Shown here: positions 10,576 through 30,754 of the stretch, in pieces | Layout of the letters: every line of letters starts with the position of its first letter | Numbering within the stretch: the stretch's first letter is position 1 | Assembly: GCA_047611725.1 (NCBI GenBank) | Contig: JBLFWR010000003.1 | Location: 18,779 to 82,778 of the forward strand | Reading direction: 5' to 3' | DNA length: 64,000 nt | DNA from: Candidatus Binatia bacterium | GTDB lineage: Bacteria; Desulfobacterota; Binatia; UBA1149; CAITLU01 | Notes under the pieces: generated by a model | Seen by the model: the letters and a program-made list of their open reading frames with translations, nothing else | What the model was told of the DNA's origin: nothing | The model's database searches: none | Program-made: the position numbers and the translations under genes

Positions 10576-10685
10576 ACTTCAGTTCAGAGAACACATAGAA
10601 AAGCGCTCGAGCCTTAAACGAAAACGGGCCGCCCACCAAATGGTGAGCGGCCCAATTTTCTTGCGAAACGTGCTTAGCGATCAGC

Positions 10686-12659
10686 TCAGGGAGCGCAAAC
10701 CACTTCACCTACGCCACAAGGACACACGGTCTCGATCGGACACACAACGGTGCCGTCGTTGTTGTACGGGTCGTTTCCAGCTCCGCCATCCGGATCGAAT
10801 TGGCAGGAACCACTGTCCGGACACTCGACATCCGACGTACAAGTTCCACCAGGGTTCGATCCACCCTGACAGGTATTGACGAGATCGCAGTCACCGCCGT
10901 CACTACAGTCAACGTCGATCCAGCTCGGATCGCCCGCGATCATCGCGTCAACCCAGCTGTCCAGGGTCGGCACACCGTCGGTGGTATCGGTGAAGATCTT
11001 GTCGCTTCCCCATACCGTGTGACGCGAACCCGCGCCCGTGTAAGAGCGGAAGTTATCCGTGGCCGAATTCGCAGCAGAAATGTCACTGACGAAGTCACGC
11101 ATACACGCGCTCCATTCGCAGGTGTTCTGCCACCAGTTCCCCCACTCCGCGATGTCGTTGATATTGGGGAACTTCATCACGTTGTAGAATGCCGACTGGC
11201 CGCCACCGCTACCGTCATACGCGCTTTGGTACTGCGCGAATCGGTGCTGCGGGAACGCCTCTGCAATACGGATCCACATTTCGGGGCTTGAAAGCTCGAC
11301 GGCCGAGTCGACACCCAGAACTTTCGGAAGCACGCTGTCCACGCCCCACTCGGCGATGCTGTTATCCAACCATTCCTGAGTGATAACGCCGGTCCCGGCG
11401 TCGCCGAGAACGTTGTGCGTAACCGAGGGGTAGACAACTTCCATCAAGTTAATTGAGTTCATGATCGCACCGTAAGAGCCGGCGCTCGAACCCGTGGAGA
11501 AAACCTCTTCGGGATCAACAAAACGCTCGCGTGCCCACTTCTCGGCCAAGCGTGCATGTTGAAAACCGCGGTGGAAGGTTAGGCCACCGTTTGGGTAGGT
11601 GGTCGTTCGATTACCCCAGTGCACGTCGCCTGAGCAATACGACACAAACACTACGTGCCAATCTTTGAATTGGTTATCGATGTGCTGTGACGCGTAGCCG
11701 GTACCGGCAATATCGGGATTGTCACCCGCGCCGGTTTCCGCCTTCATCGTGTTGGCGATGTAGCAGGTTCCCGTGCTCCAACATGCGCCACCACCTTGGT
11801 AGTACATGAGAAGCTTGTTCACAGTGCCCTTCTTGTAGTGGAACGAGTAAGGGGTGTCTTTCACGCAGCGGGGCTTTAACAGTAGCTTCTCGTACTGCAC
11901 AGTTGTCTCGCCCCAGCTTTCCTCACCGGAACCTGGCGTACCTTCCACGACGTGGGTGAACACGAACGGTGCGTCGGGCGCGATGACCGTGGAGAGCCGA
12001 ACCCCCTCGACCAAGCCTTCCAGAGCGGCCTGGGCAGAAACAACATCGGGCTGCCCCGCTACGCATTTCGGTTCAGCCTTACCGAACGCCACTGTAAACT
12101 TGTCTTGGGCTTTGACCAGTGAGGCCGCTTTGCGGCTGCGATCGGTATCCTTGACTGGAGCCTTGATGAATTTGGATTCCACTTTGAGAATCCCACCGCA
12201 AAACTTGGCAGCCGCCGAGAACAACCCGGCCCGGCATTTACGATCGTCGGAATCGTTGTTGTCGACCCCGTTGTTGACGGTGTCTGAAATCCCGCCAATC
12301 CCGCCAGCCAGCAGTGCCACTGCCGCCGCCGAGTCGACAGTGGCGAGACTGCAGTCTACGCCTTTCTTCGTAGACCTGGCCTCTTCCTTGGCCCATGTGT
12401 CCGTCAACTTGTCGGCGGCTTTGGCAATCGCCGCGTCGCGGTTGGTTCCGCCGGAATCCTTGGACGGGGCTTTCGCGTACTTTGACCAGGCTTTCAGAGC
12501 GCTTTGGCAATACTTGCTGGCGGCCTTTTGCTTACCAGACACACATTTATTTGTAGGATAGACGCCGGCTTCGGCATCGGTCGTGGTCGCCACCGTAAAG
12601 GCGGCGATCATGGCTACTGCAACAGTTCCTGCGCAGAGCGCAGACGCGGATCGCTTCAT
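10686..12659 (-). CDS. Secreted pectin-acetylesterase/Notum-like (PAE family) esterase with N-terminal Lys/Cys-rich tandem repeats and a Cys-rich C-terminal module
   Basis: Signal peptide. Two repeats of about 75 aa (KC..GK...K[YF]C...LK..SK[YF].KAP.KD...). PAE motifs YQGGGACW, SYCSGD and GSSAGS. C-terminal CSDGGDCDLVNTCQGG...CPCG. Confidence 0.65.
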   Translation of the reverse strand: MKRSASALCAGTVAVAMIAAFTVATTTDAEAGVYPTNKCVSGKQKAASKYCQSALKAWSKYAKAPSKDSGGTNRDAAIAKAADKLTDTWAKEEARSTKKGVDCSLATVDSAAAVALLAGGIGGISDTVNNGVDNNDSDDRKCRAGLFSAAAKFCGGILKVESKFIKAPVKDTDRSRKAASLVKAQDKFTVAFGKAEPKCVAGQPDVVSAQAALEGLVEGVRLSTVIAPDAPFVFTHVVEGTPGSGEESWGETTVQYEKLLLKPRCVKDTPYSFHYKKGTVNKLLMYYQGGGACWSTGTCYIANTMKAETGAGDNPDIAGTGYASQHIDNQFKDWHVVFVSYCSGDVHWGNRTTTYPNGGLTFHRGFQHARLAEKWARERFVDPEEVFSTGSSAGSYGAIMNSINLMEVVYPSVTHNVLGDAGTGVITQEWLDNSIAEWGVDSVLPKVLGVDSAVELSSPEMWIRIAEAFPQHRFAQYQSAYDGSGGGQSAFYNVMKFPNINDIAEWGNWWQNTCEWSACMRDFVSDISAANSATDNFRSYTGAGSRHTVWGSDKIFTDTTDGVPTLDSWVDAMIAGDPSWIDVDCSDGGDCDLVNTCQGGSNPGGTCTSDVECPDSGSCQFDPDGGAGNDPYNNDGTVVCPIETVCPCGVGEVVCAP

Positions 12660-16886: not shown

Positions 16887-18086
16887 CTAGTCCAAAAAGT
16901 CTCCATCCTTTAACCGCTGGGGTACATACTTTTCGGTAACGTAGGAAATATCCTTTGAGATCAGCGCTTCGACTTCCAGCTTGAAGCCGTTCTTGAGCAT
17001 CAACTGGATTTCGCGCTGCCACTCCCGCTTGTTGGCGAACCACGGGTAAGCCGCGATCTGCTTCGCGCGTTTAATGTCGTTGTCGTTGAGGTCAATCGTT
17101 ACCGACGGAGTTAACTCGCAGGCAGTGTAGTCCTTGCTGCGAAGACCGATGAAGCGGGCATCGGGAATCGCCATACGCTGCGATTCATAGGCCAAATTAA
17201 TCGACCCCTGCTTGAGCACCGAATAGATGTAGTACCCCCAAGGGTCGTTATCGAGCAGGCAATACACCGGTAGTTTCAGCTCGTTGTGCAAGCGGTACAG
17301 CATGCGGCGCACCCCGCGCGGAGGTTGGCCACCACCGTGGGTAAGAATGCACTTGTGGGTGCGCCAAAACTTATCTTCGTTAAAGCGCTGCCAAACAGTG
17401 TCCTTTTCGACGTGCAAGACGAACTTCGCATCGCAGCGCCCAAACTCGATCACGTCGGGCTCCACGATCGATGGAATCCCATAGCCGCCCGATCCCATAT
17501 GTGCACAGTCAATTACGTCGCCATTGTCGGTCAACGTAATTTCACCGACCATGTCGCCCTTCTTCTGAGCGTAGAGATGCAACTGTTCGCGCAGGGCGTT
17601 TAGGGTGACTTCAATGTCCTCAATGATCGGATCGCAATCACCCTGGTCATCGAACGTCTCTTCCTTGGTGCCCGGGATGGTGTGCTTGAGAAGATAGTAC
17701 AGACCACGAATCGATGTGGTCTTGCCCTCGTCAATCAGCTGCTTGCAGCCCGAGCCGACCAGCACCGACTGCATGTAGCTCTTGGCCTGCGAGAGATTGA
17801 ACAACTCGCGCCGATTGGTGCCTGTGCCCATTTCGATGAAGCGCTTGCGCTTGTTGTAACTTACGTTGGACAAGGAGCGAGAAGGAATCTCCAAGTGCGG
17901 CGTGCGGCGTTTGGAGGCCGCGGTGACCACGGAATCGGCCAAGCCTCTTAGTGACGCAAGCGTGCGTTGATCGACCTCGTTCCGCGCAGCGGCCAGTGCC
18001 GCGTTCTTGGCCGCTCGTGCAGCCTCCGCCTTGGCCGCAGCTTTCGTCGAGCCAGTTTTTTTCTTGCCGGTCGCCATCGAAATCAC
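16887..18086 (-). CDS. top6A: DNA topoisomerase VI subunit A (Spo11/Top6A family)
   Basis: Toprim and CAP motifs FVLHVEKD, LLDNDPWGYYIYSV and SINLAYESQRMAIPDARFIGL align closely with archaeal Top6A. The start overlaps the top6B stop by 4 nt. Confidence 0.9.
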   Translation of the reverse strand: MISMATGKKKTGSTKAAAKAEAARAAKNAALAAARNEVDQRTLASLRGLADSVVTAASKRRTPHLEIPSRSLSNVSYNKRKRFIEMGTGTNRRELFNLSQAKSYMQSVLVGSGCKQLIDEGKTTSIRGLYYLLKHTIPGTKEETFDDQGDCDPIIEDIEVTLNALREQLHLYAQKKGDMVGEITLTDNGDVIDCAHMGSGGYGIPSIVEPDVIEFGRCDAKFVLHVEKDTVWQRFNEDKFWRTHKCILTHGGGQPPRGVRRMLYRLHNELKLPVYCLLDNDPWGYYIYSVLKQGSINLAYESQRMAIPDARFIGLRSKDYTACELTPSVTIDLNDNDIKRAKQIAAYPWFANKREWQREIQLMLKNGFKLEVEALISKDISYVTEKYVPQRLKDGDFLD

Positions 18087-20389
18087 ACCAGGCGGAGCTG
18101 TTCGCCCGCCCTACCCTTGGCCGCGTTCTTAACCGCGGGGCCTTTCTTTGCCGTTTGTTTCTTCTTGGTCGTCTTCTTGGTTGGTTTTGCCGCGATTTTT
18201 TTCTTCGGCGATTTCTTCGAAGACTTCTTCGACACCTTCTTGGCGACCTTCTTGGCGACCTGAGCGACTTCCTTCGGTTTCGCCTTGGCGCGCTTCTTCG
18301 GCGCCTTTGTCGCTCTGACCCGGGGAGTCCGCACGCCGCCGTTCGTTGCGGGCCCGGCGTCACCACCATCGAGACGATCGCCAGTAACAACGGCTCCTGC
18401 ATCATCGACAATCAGAACGTTGTCCCCGTAGAATTCTTCTTCGCCTTCTTCTATGCGCTTGCCGGCATCGTCCATTTTCAGGTCGGCTTCGGCTGTCTTT
18501 CGCTGTGCGACTTCAAGAAGTTGCTCATAGACGACTTCCGGATCGGCCTGGTTCAGCTTACCAACAGCGGTCGCGACTTCGCCGAGATAGCGAAGAAAAA
18601 TACTACGACGCTCACCTTCCTGCTTAACACGACGACGACGACGCAAGTAAATTGACAACTTGCGTCCCACAGCCTGGAGCGCGAGTCGCAGTTCCTTTTC
18701 GATTTCGGGGTATGAGGCGACCGCCTCTTTCGATTCGCTGGTAAAAGGCACCCACACGCTACCCATGTGAACAACGATAGAAATCGGACCACCCGGGAGT
18801 TGCCCACGTGACTGCGTCAGACCATACGCACGCCAGTTGGTCTTCATCACGGCCTTAGTAATCGCACAGCCGCCGGCTTGGAACTGCAGCGGGACACGAT
18901 TGGCATAGCGCATGACCTGCATGCCCTGACCATCGGAGACGGTGACCGATTGCATGGCCTCAAAAAGTTTTTCGAGGCAAACGTCATCGACTTTCGATGG
19001 CGACTGACGAGCCGTGAAGCCTGCTGCCTTCAAAATCCGGTCGGCGCTATCGGGGCCCAGCCCATCGAACGAATTGACCAAGAACTGGCGCATGCTGCGA
19101 GCGTCACTTTCAGCCAAAACCTCGCGCAGCCCATCGAGCGAAACCTTCTCAACCGGGCTGCCACCACCAAACGCCAACGCGACCTCAATCTGGAACGGGT
19201 TGCCGCGATACACCGAAGGTGGCCGCGTAGAGGCAACATAAAACTCAGCGGGGACAACTTGATGGAGTCCCGCGAGCAGCAGCGGTTCTCCTATCGGCGA
19301 GATACAGTCGGTCGAGGGCGCAGAGATTTTGGTAGATTGCAGCGAACTATGGAGACGGTCGGCTTCGTCGCGACCAATACGCTTTGTGGACGCGCGAGAG
19401 GAAAGCTTTGCGGACTTGCAAACTTTGCTGGCTATGCCGGGACTGACGCGTGAAAAACTTTTAGTGAGAAACTGCGACAAGGTCTGCCCCTGCGCATCTT
19501 TCAACATCGTGATGAGACGGCCGAGTTCTACACCATAGGGATGGGGCTTGATCTCTTTCGCTTCCGGCGGAAGTTCAAATGTGGAGCGCCGGTATGTGTG
19601 CTGATTATCGTCGGGGTCGTGATAGTGGAGCGTCGCGTGCGGATTCGTGATCGCGGTTTGCTCCAAATACTCGTCAACGCTGCCGCGACCGCGTTTGTAT
19701 CGTGCTTCCAACTCGATCGTCACACGCGTGCCGCTTTTCACTTCCTGCGGCGCGGCACCTTCTTCGTCGGGATCGTAGTGGCTGTCCCACGCGATTCCGT
19801 GTTCGGCCATGTAGGCGCGACCCTTTTCGCCGGGCGCGATGTCGAGACCATTGCCGCGTCCGTTGTGAATTTCGGGCTTGTTGTTCTTCGTGTCGATCTC
19901 CACCTCATAATAATGAACAGGAGTTCGAATCGAGAGTTTGGAGACGATCTTGACTGGCTTGCCGGTCGTGAGCTTGCCGTACATGCCAGCCGCGCTGATA
20001 CCGATGCCCTGCTGGCCACGACTCATACGCAAGCGATGAAATTTGGAGCCGTACAGCAGCTTGCCGAAAATCAACGGAATCTGCTTTTTAACGATACCGG
20101 GGCCGTTGTCCTGGACGGAAACACGGAACCGGTCTTGGGTGGTTCGCTCGATGGCCACCCAGATTTCGGGAACGATGCCCGCTTCCTCACAGGCGTCTAG
20201 CGAGTTGTCGACGGCTTCCTTGACGGTAGTCAGAAGGGCCTTGCGCAGATTGTCGAAGCCGAGCAGGTGACGGTTCTTCGCAAAGAACTCACTGACCGAG
20301 ATCTCGCGCTGCGCCGCCGCCATCGACTGGGCGGTCGCATTCTTACGAGCCTTGGGCTTCCTAGTTGATCCGGCGCTCCGCGTCCCCAC
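18083..20389 (-). CDS. top6B: DNA topoisomerase VI subunit B (GHKL ATPase) with a lysine-rich histone-H1-like C-terminal tail
   Basis: EFFAKNRHLLGF, Bergerat N-box EAVDNSLDA, VQDNGPGI, KPHPYGV and RYANRVPL all match Top6B. GTG start with a GGAGAGGAAG ribosome-binding site. The C-terminal 70 aa is KK(x)-rich. Confidence 0.9.
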   Translation of the reverse strand: MGTRSAGSTRKPKARKNATAQSMAAAQREISVSEFFAKNRHLLGFDNLRKALLTTVKEAVDNSLDACEEAGIVPEIWVAIERTTQDRFRVSVQDNGPGIVKKQIPLIFGKLLYGSKFHRLRMSRGQQGIGISAAGMYGKLTTGKPVKIVSKLSIRTPVHYYEVEIDTKNNKPEIHNGRGNGLDIAPGEKGRAYMAEHGIAWDSHYDPDEEGAAPQEVKSGTRVTIELEARYKRGRGSVDEYLEQTAITNPHATLHYHDPDDNQHTYRRSTFELPPEAKEIKPHPYGVELGRLITMLKDAQGQTLSQFLTKSFSRVSPGIASKVCKSAKLSSRASTKRIGRDEADRLHSSLQSTKISAPSTDCISPIGEPLLLAGLHQVVPAEFYVASTRPPSVYRGNPFQIEVALAFGGGSPVEKVSLDGLREVLAESDARSMRQFLVNSFDGLGPDSADRILKAAGFTARQSPSKVDDVCLEKLFEAMQSVTVSDGQGMQVMRYANRVPLQFQAGGCAITKAVMKTNWRAYGLTQSRGQLPGGPISIVVHMGSVWVPFTSESKEAVASYPEIEKELRLALQAVGRKLSIYLRRRRRVKQEGERRSIFLRYLGEVATAVGKLNQADPEVVYEQLLEVAQRKTAEADLKMDDAGKRIEEGEEEFYGDNVLIVDDAGAVVTGDRLDGGDAGPATNGGVRTPRVRATKAPKKRAKAKPKEVAQVAKKVAKKVSKKSSKKSPKKKIAAKPTKKTTKKKQTAKKGPAVKNAAKGRAGEQLRLV

Positions 20390-20517: not shown

Positions 20518-21033
20518 CTAAATCGGGGACGGGTACCTATTTTTCCTAAATAGGTACCCGTCCCCGATTTCTCTATTCGCAAGGTTCACGTCAGTCCGGG
20601 TCAGGCTCAGACTCATCCCACCACCATTAAAAATGGCCAGGCCGGTCGTGATCACCGATGCCATAGTGTCCCCGGTGGTCGTCCCGTTGGTGGGAGAGGT
20701 GTAGAAACGCTCAGGCGACGTCAATGGATGCTTGGTCGTAAACTTGCCCATCTTACGGTCGTTCAGGGCCTCAATCGGCAAAATCACAACCGCACCCGAC
20801 GCCGCAAACTTCACTTCGCCACTAACTTCCGCCGAGTCGCTGCTAGCCCAGCGATCCCATTTCGAATTGCTGCTCTGCAGGGTGCTGAAATCCAGGACCA
20901 GGTTCAGACGCACCGCAGACGCGCCGAGGTCTCCCGCCAGCGTGCCCTCCTGAATCCAAGGAGATTCGCCCTTGGCCTGCTTGAACGCCATAGCAAGGCC
21001 GCCCATCACCCCTAGGTAGGACGGATTGAACAT
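20518..21033 (-). CDS. Hypothetical protein (possibly the 3' fragment of a disrupted lipoprotein gene)
   Basis: High GC3 ORF of 171 aa. Its last 15 codons and the stop lie inside the palindromic repeat at 20520..20570. Confidence 0.4.
   Translation of the reverse strand: MFNPSYLGVMGGLAMAFKQAKGESPWIQEGTLAGDLGASAVRLNLVLDFSTLQSSNSKWDRWASSDSAEVSGEVKFAASGAVVILPIEALNDRKMGKFTTKHPLTSPERFYTSPTNGTTTGDTMASVITTGLAIFNGGGMSLSLTRTDVNLANREIGDGYLFRKNRYPSPI
20520..20570. repeat. Palindromic repeat element, copy 1 (aaatcggggacgggtacctattt-loop-aaataggtacccgtccccgattt)
   Basis: Perfect arms of about 23 nt. Same family as 27799..27855 and 41899..41943. Confidence 0.85.
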
Positions 21034-21563
21034 CGACGTGCCAGTGGCCGAAAAGATGTGCTAGCGGGTTTGGCCGGCCTTACCCAACGCTGCCTCGGCG
21101 TCATCGCAAATGGTGTCGGCCAGGGCCTGCATGCCGGCGACATCCATCGCCCTTCATCTGGTAGATGGAGCGAACCTTTGATTCGACTCGACGCTCCGAC
21201 GACGGCAACAGGCCGCGGCTGGTCGCGGCACTGGCCGATGTTTGGATACCGTACAAAACGTTGCACTCGCTCAAAAAGTCCTTGCCCGGTGTCTTGTTGG
21301 CTCTTCCGTCCTTGGCCTCGATAAACGTGCTGGCCTGCGAAGTGGCCGAAGCGTCTCCGTCAAATCTGAGGCGCCGCAGGTGCAGTGGCCATACCGCCAC
21401 AGCCGGAAATCAAAAGCGCAAGCGCAACTGCAAAACACCCGATACTCACTATAGAAACCTCGAAATGCTTGGTCGTTCGGTCAAAAAAAACGGCTCCGGG
21501 AACGACGCCGGAACCGACTATATTCGCGATCTGAAAAACTCTGGCGACCCCCGGCCCGTGCAC
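21033..21563 (-). pseudogene. Probable degraded lipoprotein gene (lipobox signal peptide followed by at least two frame breaks)
   Basis: On the minus strand a GTG-initiated segment VSIVSIGCFAVALALLISGC (lipobox) ends after 10 more codons. The reading continues in two other frames into ORF 20518..21033. There is an A8 homopolymer at the 5' end. Confidence 0.35.
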
Positions 21564-21569
21564 AACACG

Positions 21570-22037
21570 CTAGTCTCCCGCCCTGGGTACTGGACGCGCT
21601 CCCACCGGATCGCGAAGGGGCCGCTCGCGGGCGAGCCCAACCTCGGCCGGCGAAAACGGTTCTACATTTTCTAGCCCAGAAAACTCGGAGAGCACGTAGT
21701 CCAGCAGGCGCGCCAAACGGGCATCGTCAACAGGAGCCTGCGCGACTCCGGGAACGCGCATGAGATAATCTCGGCCGCCGTTGGCCGTCATGACCGGGCC
21801 AAGCTCGTGCAACGACGGAACGGTTTCAGATCCGGTCCCGTCCATGAGGTGGCAACCCGCGCAGTGAAGGACGTAGTCGTGGCGAACCAAACTCGCAGCT
21901 GACGCAGCTGACGCAGCTGACGGAGTCGACACCGATTGGGGACTGGTCAATACGATTGCCGCATTCTCGGCAGCCACAGCATACGTGGCCATCAGCACGA
22001 GCAACATGCTCGCTGTACCCCAAACAGCCGACTTCAT
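21570..22037 (-). CDS. c-type cytochrome (class I, single CxxCH), probable electron acceptor for methylamine dehydrogenase
   Basis: Signal peptide, CAGCH haem-binding motif, ATGA overlap with mauA. Contains a 9-mer repeat encoding SAASAASAAS. Confidence 0.7.
   Translation of the reverse strand: MKSAVWGTASMLLVLMATYAVAAENAAIVLTSPQSVSTPSAASAASAASLVRHDYVLHCAGCHLMDGTGSETVPSLHELGPVMTANGGRDYLMRVPGVAQAPVDDARLARLLDYVLSEFSGLENVEPFSPAEVGLARERPLRDPVGARPVPRAGD
21895..21921 (-). repeat. 9-mer tandem repeat (gcagctgac x3) inside the cytochrome c gene
   Basis: Seen directly in the sequence. Confidence 0.8.
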
Positions 22038-22582
22038 TTTTCGGGTTGAGCCTCGACGGCCAAACCGATCACCATCGCTGTAGAACAGTTGTAGATCTGT
22101 GAGCTCGCCCCCCCGCACCAATTCACATCGTTGCTTCGATACGGGTGGTAAATCGGACGATCGCCTTCGTTGCGGTGGCAGAAACACCGACCGCAATAGC
22201 TCTTGCCACAGCAGTCGTTGTACCAAATCACATAGTCTTTTCCGTCGGCCGGATTGCGACACGTTCCGATCCAGGACACTGGCGACATCTCGGTCCCCGG
22301 CGGGCAAGCCTTGTGGGAACCACCACAACACGAGCACAAAAATCCATCGATGGCGCAATGCCGCCAGTACTCGCAGCGCATCGGATCTCCGAGTGGACCG
22401 TCGATCCCTTCAGGTGCCGCCGGTGCGCGTGAACTTGAAGCTTGACCACGGGCTACGGGCAAAAGCGGTATCGCAGCGGCGCCCACCAGCAATGCGGCAA
22501 AGCGTCCGAGGAACCCACGGCGAGGCATCCTGCGCGCCGCTTCACGCGAGTAGCGTTCCATCGTTCGATCGAGTCGGTTCAT
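22034..22582 (-). CDS. mauA: Methylamine dehydrogenase light (TTQ-containing) subunit
   Basis: Tat signal RRGFLGRFAALLVGAAA. The mature part aligns with Paracoccus MauA (CEYWRHCAIDGFLCSCCGGS...CPPGT...DCCG...RC.C). ATG in ATGA overlap with mauD. Confidence 0.9.
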   Translation of the reverse strand: MNRLDRTMERYSREAARRMPRRGFLGRFAALLVGAAAIPLLPVARGQASSSRAPAAPEGIDGPLGDPMRCEYWRHCAIDGFLCSCCGGSHKACPPGTEMSPVSWIGTCRNPADGKDYVIWYNDCCGKSYCGRCFCHRNEGDRPIYHPYRSNDVNWCGGASSQIYNCSTAMVIGLAVEAQPEK

Positions 22583-23235
22583 GCTCCGCCTCCTGTAGAA
22601 ACGCCTTCCGGACCGTCTCCCTTGTCCAACTCCGCCGGATCTGCGTGATCCGCCAACCAATCCTGGATCGACGCAACTCCCAGCCTTTCGGCTTCGAACA
22701 GGCTTTCCAGGTGTTCGCGTGTGTTGACCAAGCCCTTCGCTCGCAAAATCCCTTCTGCATCGATCAAAACGGCGTAAGGAAGTTTCGCTACTTCGAAACT
22801 AATCCCCAGGGCCGCCGACACGACATACGGCATCTCTTCAAGATCATGATCGGACACGAAACGGCGATGCTCTTCCTCATCTCCATCGCTTGCCAACACC
22901 ACTCGAAGCGGAGGCACTTGGGATCGAGCCACACGTAAGACCGTTGGCAACAAAACCTTACAAACCGGACAGGTTGGAGACAGGAAGAACACAAGCGTGC
23001 GACGACCATCGTCGGCCGGGCCGCCGATCGAAACTGGGGTACCAGCCAAGGTCGGTACTTCCAGCGTTGGTGCAGGCTCACCAACCTCGGGACCCGAACG
23101 GTTTAGCATCGCGCCCGCCGGAGCGAGACGTTCGTGTAAGACACCGACCTGTCTGATCAGCGCCAGCACGATGAACGCCAAAGCCACGACGACAACCCAA
23201 AGTAACACGTTGGAGATCAACAGGGTTTCGTTCAT
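22579..23235 (-). CDS. mauD: Methylamine utilization protein MauD (thioredoxin-like)
   Basis: N-terminal transmembrane helix and thioredoxin-like CPVC motif (FFLSPTCPVCKVLLP). Position between mauE and mauA. Confidence 0.75.
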   Translation of the reverse strand: MNETLLISNVLLWVVVVALAFIVLALIRQVGVLHERLAPAGAMLNRSGPEVGEPAPTLEVPTLAGTPVSIGGPADDGRRTLVFFLSPTCPVCKVLLPTVLRVARSQVPPLRVVLASDGDEEEHRRFVSDHDLEEMPYVVSAALGISFEVAKLPYAVLIDAEGILRAKGLVNTREHLESLFEAERLGVASIQDWLADHADPAELDKGDGPEGVSTGGGA

Positions 23236-23801
23236 ATCTGTCTCTCCAACGCCCGGGAAGCCCAGGAGGAATGCATCGAATTCTGCGCAACCAGTAAGCG
23301 TTCGATCGATTGCCAGGCTAAAGCCGCAGCAGCAACGCACGCGAAAACAGTTACCGCGTCTAACCAATGAAGCGAGCGAGAAACCGGTGTGACGAACAAA
23401 CTGGAACCGGCAACCAAAAGTGCGACATTTCGGACGATCAGTGCAGGCCCTAGTCTTTGATACAGTTCTGGACCGCCGCAACCGCAGTCGATGTCTCGGC
23501 GCCCACGCGCAACGTTCACGGAAATCGCAGTCGTATACGCGAGCAGAAGGCCCGACACCGCAGCGGCCGCCACAAACGGCGGCGCGAACAGTGCCGCGAG
23601 GCCAGTCGCCCCTTCAAAAACGACAATCGCCGTGCCGGCCGCGCGCACCCAGGTTTTCGGCAGTATTTCGTAAGCCCACAAGGTGCGCCGAAAGGCGTCG
23701 AGATCGGCGATCTTGTGACGCACGCCGACTGCAAAAAGACCGGCAAAGCACAGCCGAACAATCAGCTGTACGATCAGGTCGCCCAGAAAAAAAGCGATCA
23801 C
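23232..23801 (-). CDS. mauE: Methylamine utilization protein MauE (membrane)
   Basis: About 185 aa with four transmembrane helices, located between mauB and mauD. ATGA overlaps on both sides. Confidence 0.7.
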   Translation of the reverse strand: MIAFFLGDLIVQLIVRLCFAGLFAVGVRHKIADLDAFRRTLWAYEILPKTWVRAAGTAIVVFEGATGLAALFAPPFVAAAAVSGLLLAYTTAISVNVARGRRDIDCGCGGPELYQRLGPALIVRNVALLVAGSSLFVTPVSRSLHWLDAVTVFACVAAAALAWQSIERLLVAQNSMHSSWASRALERQI

Positions 23802-25183
23802 GGAAGCGCCATGATCCCGCCGGAAATTCCGGATTCTTCAAGGTTTCGAACATGCTCACCGGTCAACGCGTCTAGGACACCGATGGCACCGAGTTCGGAG
23901 TGACGAACGAACAACAACGGCTGTGCGTCCTGGGTGACAACAACGCTGTGCGCGCCTAACGACGGCAGCAGCCACGAAATTGCGCGGTAGGCGAAACTGT
24001 CGGATTCAAGATCAAGATACGGACGAAGAAACGGAGCTACCAACCCTGGGGCTTCATACGTCGCCACCGAAGTGCGCGCGTGGCTATCGTAGACCCGAAT
24101 CTCGAAACCCGGATCTTTGTGTGAACCCGGACCGCCCTGGTGAACAAGCGAATATAGACGTCCGCTGTCGCGATGCAGTGAGAGGTGCTGTACTCCGCCG
24201 ATCCTCCAACCATCCGCACGCTCGGAGTCAGAGAATAACGACCACCGCTTGCTAAGACTCGGCACATCGCCTGACGTTTCCACTTCGTGAAGCCAGCCGT
24301 CGAAGGAAGCAAAGAGCCATTTCGACCCGTCGCGTACCCCTTTTTCGGTAATCGGATCTTCGACGACATCAAAGAACGGTTCGCTCGAAACTAACGCCGC
24401 CGACTCTCCGGTCTCGTCGAGCTGTACAGCCATCGCGGTACCGTTGCCGCACAGCATGATGAAACTCGCTGGCCCCGTAGGATAAACTCCAGCGCAACCT
24501 GCCGTATCGATGGTTGCCACGAAACGTCGTGCGATGAGATCAACAACTCCGACGGCTGCGGTCGGATTCTGGCTGAAAACAACTAGGAAACGCCCCTCAT
24601 CCAAGACATCCACGAGGCCAACACCGTGGCCGGCCTCGGCGGTGTGAATCGGCAACTTGATTTCGCCAACTACGCCAAGACTTCGAGAGTCATAGATTGT
24701 GACGAAATCGGAGCGCTCACCGTAGTGTCCCCGCGCATACACGGACTCGACCATGTAGAACTCACCGCGGACACGGGATCCGAGCGGAGCGCGACCCGCG
24801 ATGTTGAAATTTGTGTCAATCGCTCCAAGGACGTTGCCGTCGTCACCATCGAAGAGCAAAGAGTGTTGGAAAATGCGGTCCGCGACCCAAACCCAGTGGT
24901 CGCCAGTGGTGTCGGGCAGGCTGGCTACGATCCCGTGAGGGTCTGCCTCAAGCTCGGCAGACGCGGCGCCGGCTCCCGCGAGGACGGTCCCCGCGACGAC
25001 GACCAGCGCGAGCAGCGGCAAAGCGAACAACGGCGCTTGGACGTGAAAGGGGTGCCGTAATCGCGACAATCGCGTCTCGCGCGTCTCGTCCGACTTTCGC
25101 CTCATTTCCGTTTGGCCCGTTGCGTCCGTCGCGCCCGTTTTGCCCGGCCTGTTCATGTTGCCCATGTTGCCTATGTTGCCCAT
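23798..25183 (-). CDS. mauB: Methylamine dehydrogenase heavy subunit (beta-propeller)
   Basis: Signal peptide and a 7-bladed propeller composition (FVVFSQNPTAAVGVVDL...). First gene of the mau cluster. The start is ambiguous: candidates are M1 at 25183 or MRRKSDE at 25105. Confidence 0.85.
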   Translation of the reverse strand: MGNIGNMGNMNRPGKTGATDATGQTEMRRKSDETRETRLSRLRHPFHVQAPLFALPLLALVVVAGTVLAGAGAASAELEADPHGIVASLPDTTGDHWVWVADRIFQHSLLFDGDDGNVLGAIDTNFNIAGRAPLGSRVRGEFYMVESVYARGHYGERSDFVTIYDSRSLGVVGEIKLPIHTAEAGHGVGLVDVLDEGRFLVVFSQNPTAAVGVVDLIARRFVATIDTAGCAGVYPTGPASFIMLCGNGTAMAVQLDETGESAALVSSEPFFDVVEDPITEKGVRDGSKWLFASFDGWLHEVETSGDVPSLSKRWSLFSDSERADGWRIGGVQHLSLHRDSGRLYSLVHQGGPGSHKDPGFEIRVYDSHARTSVATYEAPGLVAPFLRPYLDLESDSFAYRAISWLLPSLGAHSVVVTQDAQPLLFVRHSELGAIGVLDALTGEHVRNLEESGISGGIMALP

Positions 25184-27855: not shown

Positions 27856-30435
27856 CTATTTCTTTAGGGCTATGTAGATCAAACCGTCGTCTTTCTTCAA
27901 CGTGTTCATCGTCGCGCCGACACAAACACCTTCGCCGGTAATCAGCTGAATCGTCGGCGACACGTTTCCACCCAGGGCTGCAACGACGCCGAGAGGGAGC
28001 GAAGTCTGCCCTTTTGCCACATTGTTCTTACCAAGCGCATCAGCCTTGCCCTTGCCTGCATCTCCGCTTTTGAGACCAATCTTCGCAACGCCCTGAGTGG
28101 CCACGTCTTTGTCCTTGTAGCCGTATCCCTTCGTGCCCTTGGCCTTCCAACAAGGCTTGCCAGCACAGGTGTCACCCGCGCGCGCGACGACAAACTCCTG
28201 AACGAGATCGGAGAAATCATCATAGATACAAAGCGCCACTTCCGTGAAAGAGTTCACCGGGTCACCGAAGTCGCCTTGAACGGTGGCCTCCTCGATATTG
28301 GTCAACTTAAGCTTCATCTTCTCTTTGCCAGCTTTCTTTTCATTGTACTGAATGCTGGCCCGACCGCCGGTTAAACAACCCAGAGCCGGTGTCGCCGGGC
28401 ACGCGGCCGGTACGGGAATGACTAGGCTGAAATCACCACCCTCAGAGATATTGAAGAAGGTTGCCGCCGGACCGGGGCCTGGGTCCAAAACGCATTCGAC
28501 AAGCACGCGGGCCTGAGACGTCACGACGTTGGGAACGGCGATACTCTCGGATCCATCGTTGGGCGTATCGTCGGCCAAAACCGTAGCAAACGTCGCGCCG
28601 CTATCCGAAGAGAACAAAATGTCTACTGTGGAGCAATTCACCGGCGCGCTGTCGGTGTCGGCAATGTCCCACAGTACGGTCGCGGTGAGGTTGGAGGCCC
28701 ACGCAGTACTGCCGACTGGGCTCGTTACAACGAAAGGCCCCGCACCACCATCCACCGAAAATGCCATTTCGTCGTGTGCGACTCCGCCGCCACCTGCACG
28801 ATTGTCGCGCACGGTCAGACGAAACGTCAGATCTCGCGTCTTGGTTGGCAAAATTTCGCCAATTGTTGATGTACCGCCAAGGATGTCGCTCATTCTCGGG
28901 AAAGTACGAGCGGCCGTTGTCGTAGCGCTAAACGACCGGAAAATCGGCGCGTTGCCTGTCGGCGATTGCGGCACACCTTGCGGGCCCAGGTCGAACTGTT
29001 CCCAGTTGTAAGTCAGCGCATCGAAGTCCGGGTCGGTCGCGGCTCCGGTGAGTGTGAACGGTGTTTCAGACGGGATGGTAAAACCGCCCGCACCCGCGTC
29101 CGGGACCGGCGCAGAGTTTCCGGTGGCCGACGTGGTGCCGCAGGCGCTACCCGACCCAACCGTGGTATGCGCAATCATTTCGTCAAAGCTAAGCGTGTGA
29201 AAGTAGGGATCGCTGTTCGCTTGTAGGTTGTTCGACGAACCGCAAATGCCTGCATACGCCTGAATGGTAGAACCACTGCCTGGTTCATAGGCCGTATCCT
29301 CGGAATGGTTGTCCGACGAACACGACCCTCCCTTCCCGTTCCACGTGTGACTACCCGCGAATTGATGTCCTAGCTCGTGCGCGACGAAATCAACGTAAAA
29401 CGGATCGCCGACAGGAGAACTCAAACCAGTCTCGCCGCCGGCTTTGGCCGACGAGTTGCAGACGACTCCTAGAAAGGCGAGTCCACCGCCACCCGTGGTA
29501 ACCACATGGCCGACGTCGTAATTCGCCGTACCGATCACGGAATCGACGTTCACCTGGTTTTCTCCCAACAGGGCGAACGCGTCTTCATTGGAATAGGGAT
29601 CGGTGCCCGCGTCCAGGTAAATGAGAAGGTCGTTGTTCGCGACGAGCACCAGGCGAGAGGCAATCTCCACCTCGTAGATTCCAGTCACGCGATTAACGAG
29701 CGTGACCAACTCAGCGGCCACTGCCGGCACGGTCCCACCGTGAAACGTGCTGTACTCGCCGTCGGCGGCCATCGCCAAACGATAGGTACGCAACGTGTCC
29801 CCTGAGGCGACCGACACAACCCCACGCGCCAACAGTGAGTTGGTCGCGGCAGCGCGCTTACCACCTGGATCCAGAGGCGGTAGCAAGTCGATCGTTGCCC
29901 CGTGTCTGGGGCGATAGTCACGCTTTTTGTAGCTAACGTAGTTCCGAACTTGACCAGGTGAGTACGGATCGATGTAGATCGCGCCGTTCGGGGAGAGGAT
30001 CTGCGCGTGGAAGCCGGCCGGCGTCCAGTCCAAACGAACCGTCGCGTCAGGGTCGTCGATGCCCTGGCCCACAAAAGTTTGGATCTCGGGGAATTTGGCG
30101 GCCAGGCCGGGCTCCATGACCGGTGACTCAACCAACGAGAAACGCCCCGTCGAGCCGTCCGGCATCGGTAGCCCGACGATCGTCCCCGTAGACCCCGTAT
30201 TCTCCCCCGGGACCGTCGACAAGAAACCTTCCCAACCAATCACGTCGAGTTCTACGGTTCGATAGACGTCGGGGACGATCACCCTTGCCTGGCGCGCCAG
30301 TGCAGGGGAATCAGCGACGTCAGACCAAAACGAAGCGTCGGCGGCCAAAGCAGTCTGGGCGTGAAACGCAAGGGTCAAAAAACCAAGACAAAAGACGAAA
30401 GTTGAGGCAACCCGGAACGGTTTCTGAAAATGCAT
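27856..30435 (-). CDS. Secreted metzincin zinc metalloprotease (reprolysin/M12B-like) with a Lys/Gly-rich C-terminal domain
   Basis: Signal peptide (MHFQKPFRVASTFVFCLGFLTLAFHAQTALA). The HELGHQFAGSH motif fits the HExxHxxGxxH metzincin consensus. Several beta-rich domains. Internal ATG start. Confidence 0.7.
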   Translation of the reverse strand: MHFQKPFRVASTFVFCLGFLTLAFHAQTALAADASFWSDVADSPALARQARVIVPDVYRTVELDVIGWEGFLSTVPGENTGSTGTIVGLPMPDGSTGRFSLVESPVMEPGLAAKFPEIQTFVGQGIDDPDATVRLDWTPAGFHAQILSPNGAIYIDPYSPGQVRNYVSYKKRDYRPRHGATIDLLPPLDPGGKRAAATNSLLARGVVSVASGDTLRTYRLAMAADGEYSTFHGGTVPAVAAELVTLVNRVTGIYEVEIASRLVLVANNDLLIYLDAGTDPYSNEDAFALLGENQVNVDSVIGTANYDVGHVVTTGGGGLAFLGVVCNSSAKAGGETGLSSPVGDPFYVDFVAHELGHQFAGSHTWNGKGGSCSSDNHSEDTAYEPGSGSTIQAYAGICGSSNNLQANSDPYFHTLSFDEMIAHTTVGSGSACGTTSATGNSAPVPDAGAGGFTIPSETPFTLTGAATDPDFDALTYNWEQFDLGPQGVPQSPTGNAPIFRSFSATTTAARTFPRMSDILGGTSTIGEILPTKTRDLTFRLTVRDNRAGGGGVAHDEMAFSVDGGAGPFVVTSPVGSTAWASNLTATVLWDIADTDSAPVNCSTVDILFSSDSGATFATVLADDTPNDGSESIAVPNVVTSQARVLVECVLDPGPGPAATFFNISEGGDFSLVIPVPAACPATPALGCLTGGRASIQYNEKKAGKEKMKLKLTNIEEATVQGDFGDPVNSFTEVALCIYDDFSDLVQEFVVARAGDTCAGKPCWKAKGTKGYGYKDKDVATQGVAKIGLKSGDAGKGKADALGKNNVAKGQTSLPLGVVAALGGNVSPTIQLITGEGVCVGATMNTLKKDDGLIYIALKK

Positions 30436-30754
30436 CCAGGGGTTACACCATAGATCGGTGGTCCTTATCAAGGTGTTCCGCGTAGCTTCCCCCGATACAG
30501 TTCTATAGACGCACCCACGCCCCCATCCCGGCTGGCGACCCAACATGACAGACAGCAATCGGTCCACCCAAACGGCCTCGCCGACGACGCCGGACCGCTG
30601 CGCGGCCGATTTCTCCACCGAATCGAAGACTTGGGCGGCATTCGTTTGATTCTCTAAAGCCTAAGCTCGCTGCGCGAAACCGTGCCCCTGTGGCGACAGC
30701 CGAAAAAGGAGCTCCGTACTTGCGTACAGGTATGCATGTAAGTACAAGTAATGC

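Follow-up and report, generated by a model that had tools for sequence, protein, structure and literature searches.

Introduction

Aromatic amine dehydrogenase (AADH) is a tryptophan tryptophylquinone (TTQ) enzyme that oxidises aromatic amines such as phenylethylamine, tyramine and tryptamine, with azurin as the electron acceptor. In Alcaligenes faecalis its genes form the aau cluster, in which aauB-E-D-A is followed by orf-2, the gene of a cytochrome c. The cluster is said to have been described in 2001 by Chistoserdov with a layout that agrees with the Alcaligenes locus examined here, and mauF, G, L, M and N reportedly have no counterparts in it. The methylamine dehydrogenase (MADH) of Paracoccus denitrificans PD1222 is encoded in a mau cluster with the order mauR-F-B-E-D-A-amicyanin-J-G-M-N, and MauG completes TTQ in MADH. 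We analysed a 64 kb stretch (the window) of a contig from a Candidatus Binatia bacterium that carries a related operon on the minus strand at 21570-25183. A preliminary description of the sequence had identified this operon as a methylamine dehydrogenase cluster from which several mau genes were missing. We consider it likely that the locus is instead a periplasmic TTQ-dependent primary-amine dehydrogenase operon of the AADH (aau) type, in what is probably a Binatia genome.

Genes named mauA and mauB have been reported in five orders of Binatota, and methylamine oxidation was inferred from them. The same paper names amicyanin as the probable acceptor, leaves mauG unmentioned and counts UTPRO1 among the Binatota orders (Murphy et al. 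2021, PMC8262859).

Organization of the operon

Five open reading frames (ORFs) follow one another in the same direction on the minus strand, all of them where the preliminary description had placed them. The gene for the heavy (alpha) subunit of a TTQ amine dehydrogenase (23798..25183; PF06433, 115.5 bits, E-value 3e-33) comes first. It is followed by genes for MauE (23232..23801; PF07291, 77.7 bits, E-value 1e-21; CGC motif) and MauD (22579..23235; TIGR02661, 240.9 bits against a cut-off of 188.6; CPVC motif), for the precursor of the TTQ light (beta) subunit (22034..22582; PF02975, 166.3 bits, E-value 4e-49), and for an Orf2-type mono-haem cytochrome c of 155 aa (21570..22037; one CxxCH, no Pfam match). 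Neighbouring genes share 4 bp of start and stop codon at all four junctions. The sequence is GTGA between the heavy subunit and MauE, where the GTG start codon of MauE overlaps the heavy-subunit stop, and ATGA at the three remaining junctions. The tightly coupled B-E-D-A core with its cytochrome c was thus recognised correctly at the outset, as were the three ATGA overlaps, to which the GTGA junction adds a fourth. The locus is an intact five-gene operon.

The Alcaligenes aau cluster has the same five genes in the same order. There, as in the window, a gene for an Orf2-type cytochrome stands directly after the light-subunit gene, and mauF, G, J, M and N and amicyanin are absent. The Alcaligenes locus that we retrieved (L007) reads aldehyde dehydrogenase, orf-1, heavy subunit, mauE, mauD, light subunit, cytochrome homologue, AraC regulator, orf-4 and hemE. 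Its light chain is 100% identical to the crystallised AADH light chain, and its cytochrome homologue matches the window cytochrome with an E-value of 7e-19. Around this shared module the two loci differ, as the window has no adjacent aldehyde dehydrogenase gene, porin-like orf-1 gene or AraC regulator. Homologues of Alcaligenes orf-1, orf-3, orf-4, hemE and the aldehyde dehydrogenase were found nowhere in the window. The hosts differ as well, being probably Binatia for the window and Betaproteobacteria for the aau cluster.

With the P. denitrificans mau cluster the window shares a homologous B-E-D-A core, in which the TTQ tryptophans and the catalytic aspartates are conserved, but it is without mauF, amicyanin, mauJ, mauG, mauM, mauN and mauR. 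When the PD1222 mau proteins were compared by phmmer with all six-frame segments of the window, MauB, MauE, MauD and MauA matched the operon, and MauF, amicyanin, MauJ, MauG, MauM and MauN had no match in the 64 kb. No stop-to-stop frame in the entire 64 kb contains two or more CxxCH motifs. A cupredoxin search that combined azurin (from Pseudomonas aeruginosa) and amicyanin seeds with a motif scan found none in the window or in the fetched loci beyond chance motif matches. The absence of mauG, F, J, M and N and of amicyanin, first noted for 10 kb on either side, therefore holds over 21 kb of one flank and 39 kb of the other.

The operon type in other genomes

A scan of one genome per species yielded at least 599 loci with a TTQ light chain, of which the 80 closest to AADH (L007-L086) were retained; the fetched loci, numbered with the prefix L, were examined with 10 kb flanks. 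The five-gene order with a cytochrome of the same family recurs in the Alcaligenes loci L007 and L008 and, overall, at about 70 of the 80 genome loci that rank best as AADH-like. Plasmid loci that carry the annotation aauB/aauA share it, as do the relatives L002-L004. When searched with a profile of the cytochrome family, almost every non-canonical locus proved to have a member, often a tandem pair, immediately behind its light-subunit gene, and the three canonical mau loci had none; the Orf2-type cytochrome of the window is thus a component that canonical mau clusters do not have. Conversely, MauF, MauJ, MauM and MauN seeds match the three canonical mau loci only, and amicyanin two of these; in all 90 non-canonical loci mauF, J, M and N and amicyanin are missing. 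Close relatives on contigs of 4.77 Mb, 8.1 Mb and 134 kb carry exactly the five-gene module in otherwise unrelated surroundings, and none of them has a PF03150 gene within 10 kb of it.

Because close relatives and most AADH-like loci keep the same module, the compact cluster is the standard form of the aau-type family. Operons of this type regularly do without mauF, G, J, M and N and amicyanin, and the preliminary description was mistaken in presenting their absence as a peculiarity of the locus. The lack of mauG, mauF and amicyanin does not single the locus out, since no AADH-type locus examined has these genes, except that 10 have MauG-family genes nearby.

Several variants of the module were seen. 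Four loci (L060, L068, L080 and L084) have a further reduced, three-gene form in which heavy, light and cytochrome genes follow one another with no mauE or mauD between them. L003 has a gene for a 50-aa protein of the Rdx family (selenoprotein W-like) at 10621-10773, between the light-subunit and cytochrome genes. In the relative with the 4.77 Mb contig (L002), an amino-acid permease gene at 11055-12323 stands directly after the cytochrome gene and is the only substrate-related neighbour seen in the clade of the window.

Affiliation of the two subunits

Both subunits score below the NCBIfam equivalog cut-offs for MADH. The light subunit reaches 172.8 bits on TIGR02659 (cut-off 196.85 bits), and the heavy subunit, at 114.8 bits on TIGR02658 (cut-off 454.45 bits), is far below. 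On the same light and heavy models the characterised Alcaligenes AADH scores 178 and 167.3 bits, similarly under the cut-offs, and the canonical MADH of Indioceanicola 301.5 and 391.5 bits. In comparison with solved structures, the light domain of the mature protein gives a gap-free alignment with AADH (2agl_D, 154.8 bits) and scores 126 bits against P. denitrificans MADH; the best match of the heavy chain is likewise AADH (2h3x_A, 138.8 bits, against 107 bits for MADH). The light chain shares 57% identity with AADH and 48-52% with canonical MADH. The heavy subunit has 52-56% identity with the relatives L002-L004, compared with 27-29% for Alcaligenes AauB and 23-26% for canonical MauB. Whether the light subunit would group with AADH or with MADH had been set beforehand as one test that could refute the methylamine dehydrogenase identification, and the outcome, by score and by identity, was against MADH.

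Neighbour-joining trees with bootstrap were built for both subunits. Light and heavy chains alike place the canonical MADH sequences in a clade that is monophyletic in 100% of the bootstrap replicates, with the window outside it, and the window groups with L002-L004 in a clade of its own. The nearest named genome loci are L086 for the light chain and L080, L084 and L085 for the heavy chain. These comparisons place the window enzyme outside the canonical MADH group. Judged from the trees and identities, the operon is a separate lineage in a broad non-MADH radiation for which AADH was the characterised reference used. With both subunits outside the canonical clade, under the MADH cut-offs and nearer to AADH, the identification as methylamine dehydrogenase is not supported. 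At the sequence level the window clade is large and conserved; light-chain homologues number 4909, and the best 120 of these 4909 have at least 64% identity.

Features of the individual proteins

The light subunit agrees with the MauA-type protein first described, with its twin-arginine signal and TTQ cysteine framework. Its leader contains the twin-arginine motif RRGFLGRF, and the protein has 14 Cys. By alignment, in P. denitrificans numbering, it retains both TTQ tryptophans, Asp32, Asp76 and Tyr119, with Ser at the position of Thr122. An Asn precedes the second TTQ Trp in the window, its relatives and AADH-like sequences, whereas this residue is Ile in all four canonical MADHs compared. The position corresponds to beta-Ile107, reportedly one of two at which mutagenesis showed an effect on the substrate size of MADH. 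The window light subunit also lacks the two-residue insertion that follows Trp108 in Paracoccus MADH. In its 14 Cys, its gapless alignment and the Asn before the second TTQ Trp it resembles the Alcaligenes AADH light subunit.

A light chain with 14 Cys was considered as a marker specific to AADH and rejected, as the canonical MauA of Indioceanicola likewise has 14 Cys; the 12 Cys of Paracoccus and Methylobacterium are a derived state. Sequences with 14 Cys and the Asn were monophyletic in 0% of bootstrap replicates, as a set defined by a regular expression that missed nested members, and this result was set aside as uninformative.

The heavy subunit, of 461 aa, is predicted to be a seven-bladed propeller with a Sec-type signal peptide. 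MauE is probably a membrane disulfide-forming protein with CGC as its active-site motif; the CXC motif of MauE has been described as the active site of a DsbB-like disulfide oxidase (bioRxiv 10.64898/2026.03.05.709764). MauD is a membrane-anchored thioredoxin-fold protein with the motif CPVC. At its N-terminus, encoded at 25105-25183 on the minus strand, the annotated heavy subunit has a low-complexity segment, MGNIGNMGNMNRPGKTGATDATGQTE, ahead of a normal signal peptide, and translation may really begin at ATG 25105 (MRRKSDE...) instead of at the annotated start.

The cytochrome and TTQ maturation

The window cytochrome has a Sec signal and one CxxCH. Its AlphaFold2 model (mean pLDDT 87) has a class I cytochrome fold, with Thermus cytochrome c552 as the best fold match (target-normalised TM-score 0.57, probability 1.0). 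Among the 70-72 cytochrome homologues the CxxCH is invariant, the proximal His is the only invariant His, and no Met is conserved. The classical 'MP' ligand motif is retained in a paralogous cytochrome type, most often the leading member of a tandem pair; at the site of this 'MP' loop about 20 residues are deleted in the window type, and Val-Pro-Gly is invariant there. Homology between the two types is clear (hhalign probability 99.8%). The alignments suggest that the window cytochrome derives from a class I cytochrome by loss of the Met, and its haem may be five-coordinate, without a conserved sixth ligand. A linked cytochrome c is thus present, as the preliminary description had stated, but its proposed role as the acceptor that replaces amicyanin is uncertain for a family that lacks the Met haem ligand.

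No TTQ-completing enzyme for AADH was found in the literature that we searched. Within 10 kb, a MauG-family gene occurs at none of the 70 loci that have the Met-less cytochrome and at 10 of the 13 that do not, the other three having shortened flanks. The di-haem genes near those loci are confirmed members of PF03150 and score 164-207 bits on TIGR03791, under its cut-off. The complementary pattern is confined to about two clades and represents about two evolutionary events, not 83 independent observations. We regard it as a lead and not as a finding, since it would fit a role of the cytochrome in maturation and would fit differing electron-transfer partners equally well. A distant gene of the cytochrome c peroxidase (CCP)/MauG family could also serve this operon, because such genes are far more widespread than MauA. 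How TTQ is formed where no MauG is linked is a question for the whole family, and the Met-less cytochrome is a candidate for the part.

Interpretation

From homology and conserved motifs we are confident that the product is a periplasmic alpha2beta2 TTQ amine dehydrogenase for which MauE and MauD would supply the disulfides of the light subunit, and that the product aldehyde and ammonium would be set free in the periplasm. For disulfide formation, TTQ maturation and the electron path we infer the following course. The light-subunit precursor would be exported by way of its twin-arginine leader, and the heavy subunit and cytochrome through their Sec signals. MauE, as a quinone-linked disulfide oxidase acting through its CXC motif, and the membrane-anchored MauD would form seven disulfides in the 14-Cys light subunit. 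The two conserved tryptophans would then be converted to TTQ by an oxidant that comes from outside the operon or is not yet recognised. The mature enzyme would turn a primary amine into aldehyde and ammonium, and the electrons would pass to a periplasmic carrier, which may be the cytochrome of the operon or a cupredoxin or cytochrome that is not linked to it.

Several observations weigh against placing the locus with AADH. There is no aldehyde dehydrogenase or regulator near the cluster in the window or in L002-L004, whereas at 51 other loci, Alcaligenes included, an aldehyde dehydrogenase gene is present within 10 kb. The betaproteobacterial AADH clade of Alcaligenes and Achromobacter does not contain the window clade. 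In light-chain identity to the window, AADH (57%) does not exceed several uncharacterised lineages (60-62%). For the heavy chain the margin between AADH (27-29%) and MADH (23-26%) is small, and for this reason 'AADH-like' denotes an operon type and a rough affinity, not a substrate. With these identities, 57% for the light and 27-29% for the heavy chain, the window stands as a lineage separate from the Alcaligenes aau cluster.

The operon might nevertheless encode a genuine methylamine dehydrogenase that serves methylotrophy, with MauG and the accessory genes elsewhere in the genome and the cytochrome in place of amicyanin. Both subunits are named methylamine dehydrogenase by NCBI and JGI, methylamine oxidation is predicted from mauA and mauB in five Binatota orders (PMC8262859), and all catalytic residues are present while the substrate is not readable from sequence. 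We judge this unlikely, given that both subunits fall under the equivalog cut-offs, at or below the scores of a true AADH, and outside a canonical clade with 100% support, that beta-107 is Asn as in AADH and not Ile, that 0 of 90 non-canonical loci have mauF, J, M, N or amicyanin, and that the cytochrome is without a Met ligand. Beyond generic family names we find no support for methylamine as the substrate. That the cluster is a decaying remnant with no active enzyme, like the broken lipoprotein gene next to it, is an idea to which the frameshifted neighbour and the lack of accessory, regulatory or aldehyde-processing genes nearby lend something. It is nonetheless extremely improbable, as all five ORFs are intact, the catalytic, Cys, CXC, CPxC and CxxCH motifs are conserved, the overlaps are precise, and the module is maintained across many relatives in differing genomic contexts.

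A further proposal concerns the aau-type family as a whole, the window included: TTQ would be completed without a linked MauG, and the Met-less Orf2-type cytochrome would be the maturation catalyst or a part of it. An ATGA overlap joins the cytochrome gene to the light-subunit gene, the pairing is kept in nearly all aau-type loci, and the 'MP' ligand loop has given way to an invariant Val-Pro-Gly. If true, the proposal would explain why the cytochrome does not co-occur with adjacent MauG-family genes (0 of 70 loci with it, against 10 of 13 without). The acceptor of Alcaligenes AADH that has been established by biochemistry is azurin and not Orf2, which also speaks for this proposal. Against it, the complementary pattern comes down to about two clades and about two events, a single haem is an unlikely stand-in for the bis-Fe(IV) chemistry of MauG, and the loss of the Met ligand is read from an alignment. 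Moreover, the fold is that of an ordinary electron-transfer cytochrome, and genes of the CCP/MauG family, which are frequent in genomes, could do their work from another site. We therefore think a maturation role quite doubtful.

The AADH-type reading has consequences for how related genes are interpreted. A close relative has been deposited at NCBI as 'Polyangiaceae bacterium UTPRO1'. Because a relative bears the name UTPRO1 and a protein of the window is deposited as Candidatus Binatia, the Binatota 'mauA/mauB' genes of Murphy et al. (PMC8262859) very probably belong to the same gene family as those in the window. The window differs from that account in having an operon of the aau type, with no amicyanin and no sign of a methylamine substrate. 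This suggests that the inference of methylamine oxidation in Binatota derives from family-level names only. Because a true AADH does at least as well on the MADH models as the window genes do, matches to mauA and mauB should be used with caution as evidence of methylamine methylotrophy in Binatota and similar uncultured groups. The locus is a divergent addition to the known AADH-type family, whose components the preliminary description rightly recognised and whose significance it overestimated.

Proteins identical to those of the window (NCBI accessions MFT4569421.1 and MFT5039839.1) occur in two metagenome-assembled genomes, labelled 'Hyphomicrobiaceae bacterium' and 'Candidatus Binatia bacterium', and one of these conflicting labels is probably wrong.

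Neighbouring features

A terminator-like hairpin lies on the minus strand at 21491..21516, 55 nt past the stop codon of the cytochrome gene. It has 9 pairs, 7 of them G-C, followed by T8, and is a match to the consensus only; it probably marks the end of the operon. A scan for sigma-70 promoters found none, a result that is uninformative for this phylum.

Downstream of the operon, at 20518-21449 on the minus strand, is the lipoprotein gene that had been called degraded. The frame that encodes its lipobox signal peptide, MSIGCFAVALALLISGC, is closed by a stop codon at about 30 codons, and the remainder continues in two other frames. The break is identical in a second assembly (L001, 99.99% identity). 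The earlier reading is plausible, and the gene is probably a pseudogene. At its 3' end a near-perfect hairpin of 47 nt with a 20-bp stem (20522-20568) separates it from a topoisomerase VI subunit B gene.

The topoisomerase gene lies in the region 16887-20389 on the minus strand and encodes 768 aa with a lysine-rich tail; a 399-aa ORF ahead of it may be subunit A. Topoisomerase VI is known chiefly from archaea, and the window comes from a bacterial metagenome-assembled genome. On the other side of the operon, at 27856-30618 on the minus strand, is a 920-aa ORF with a long hydrophobic N-terminal region and a motif resembling those of zinc metalloproteases, HELGHQF.

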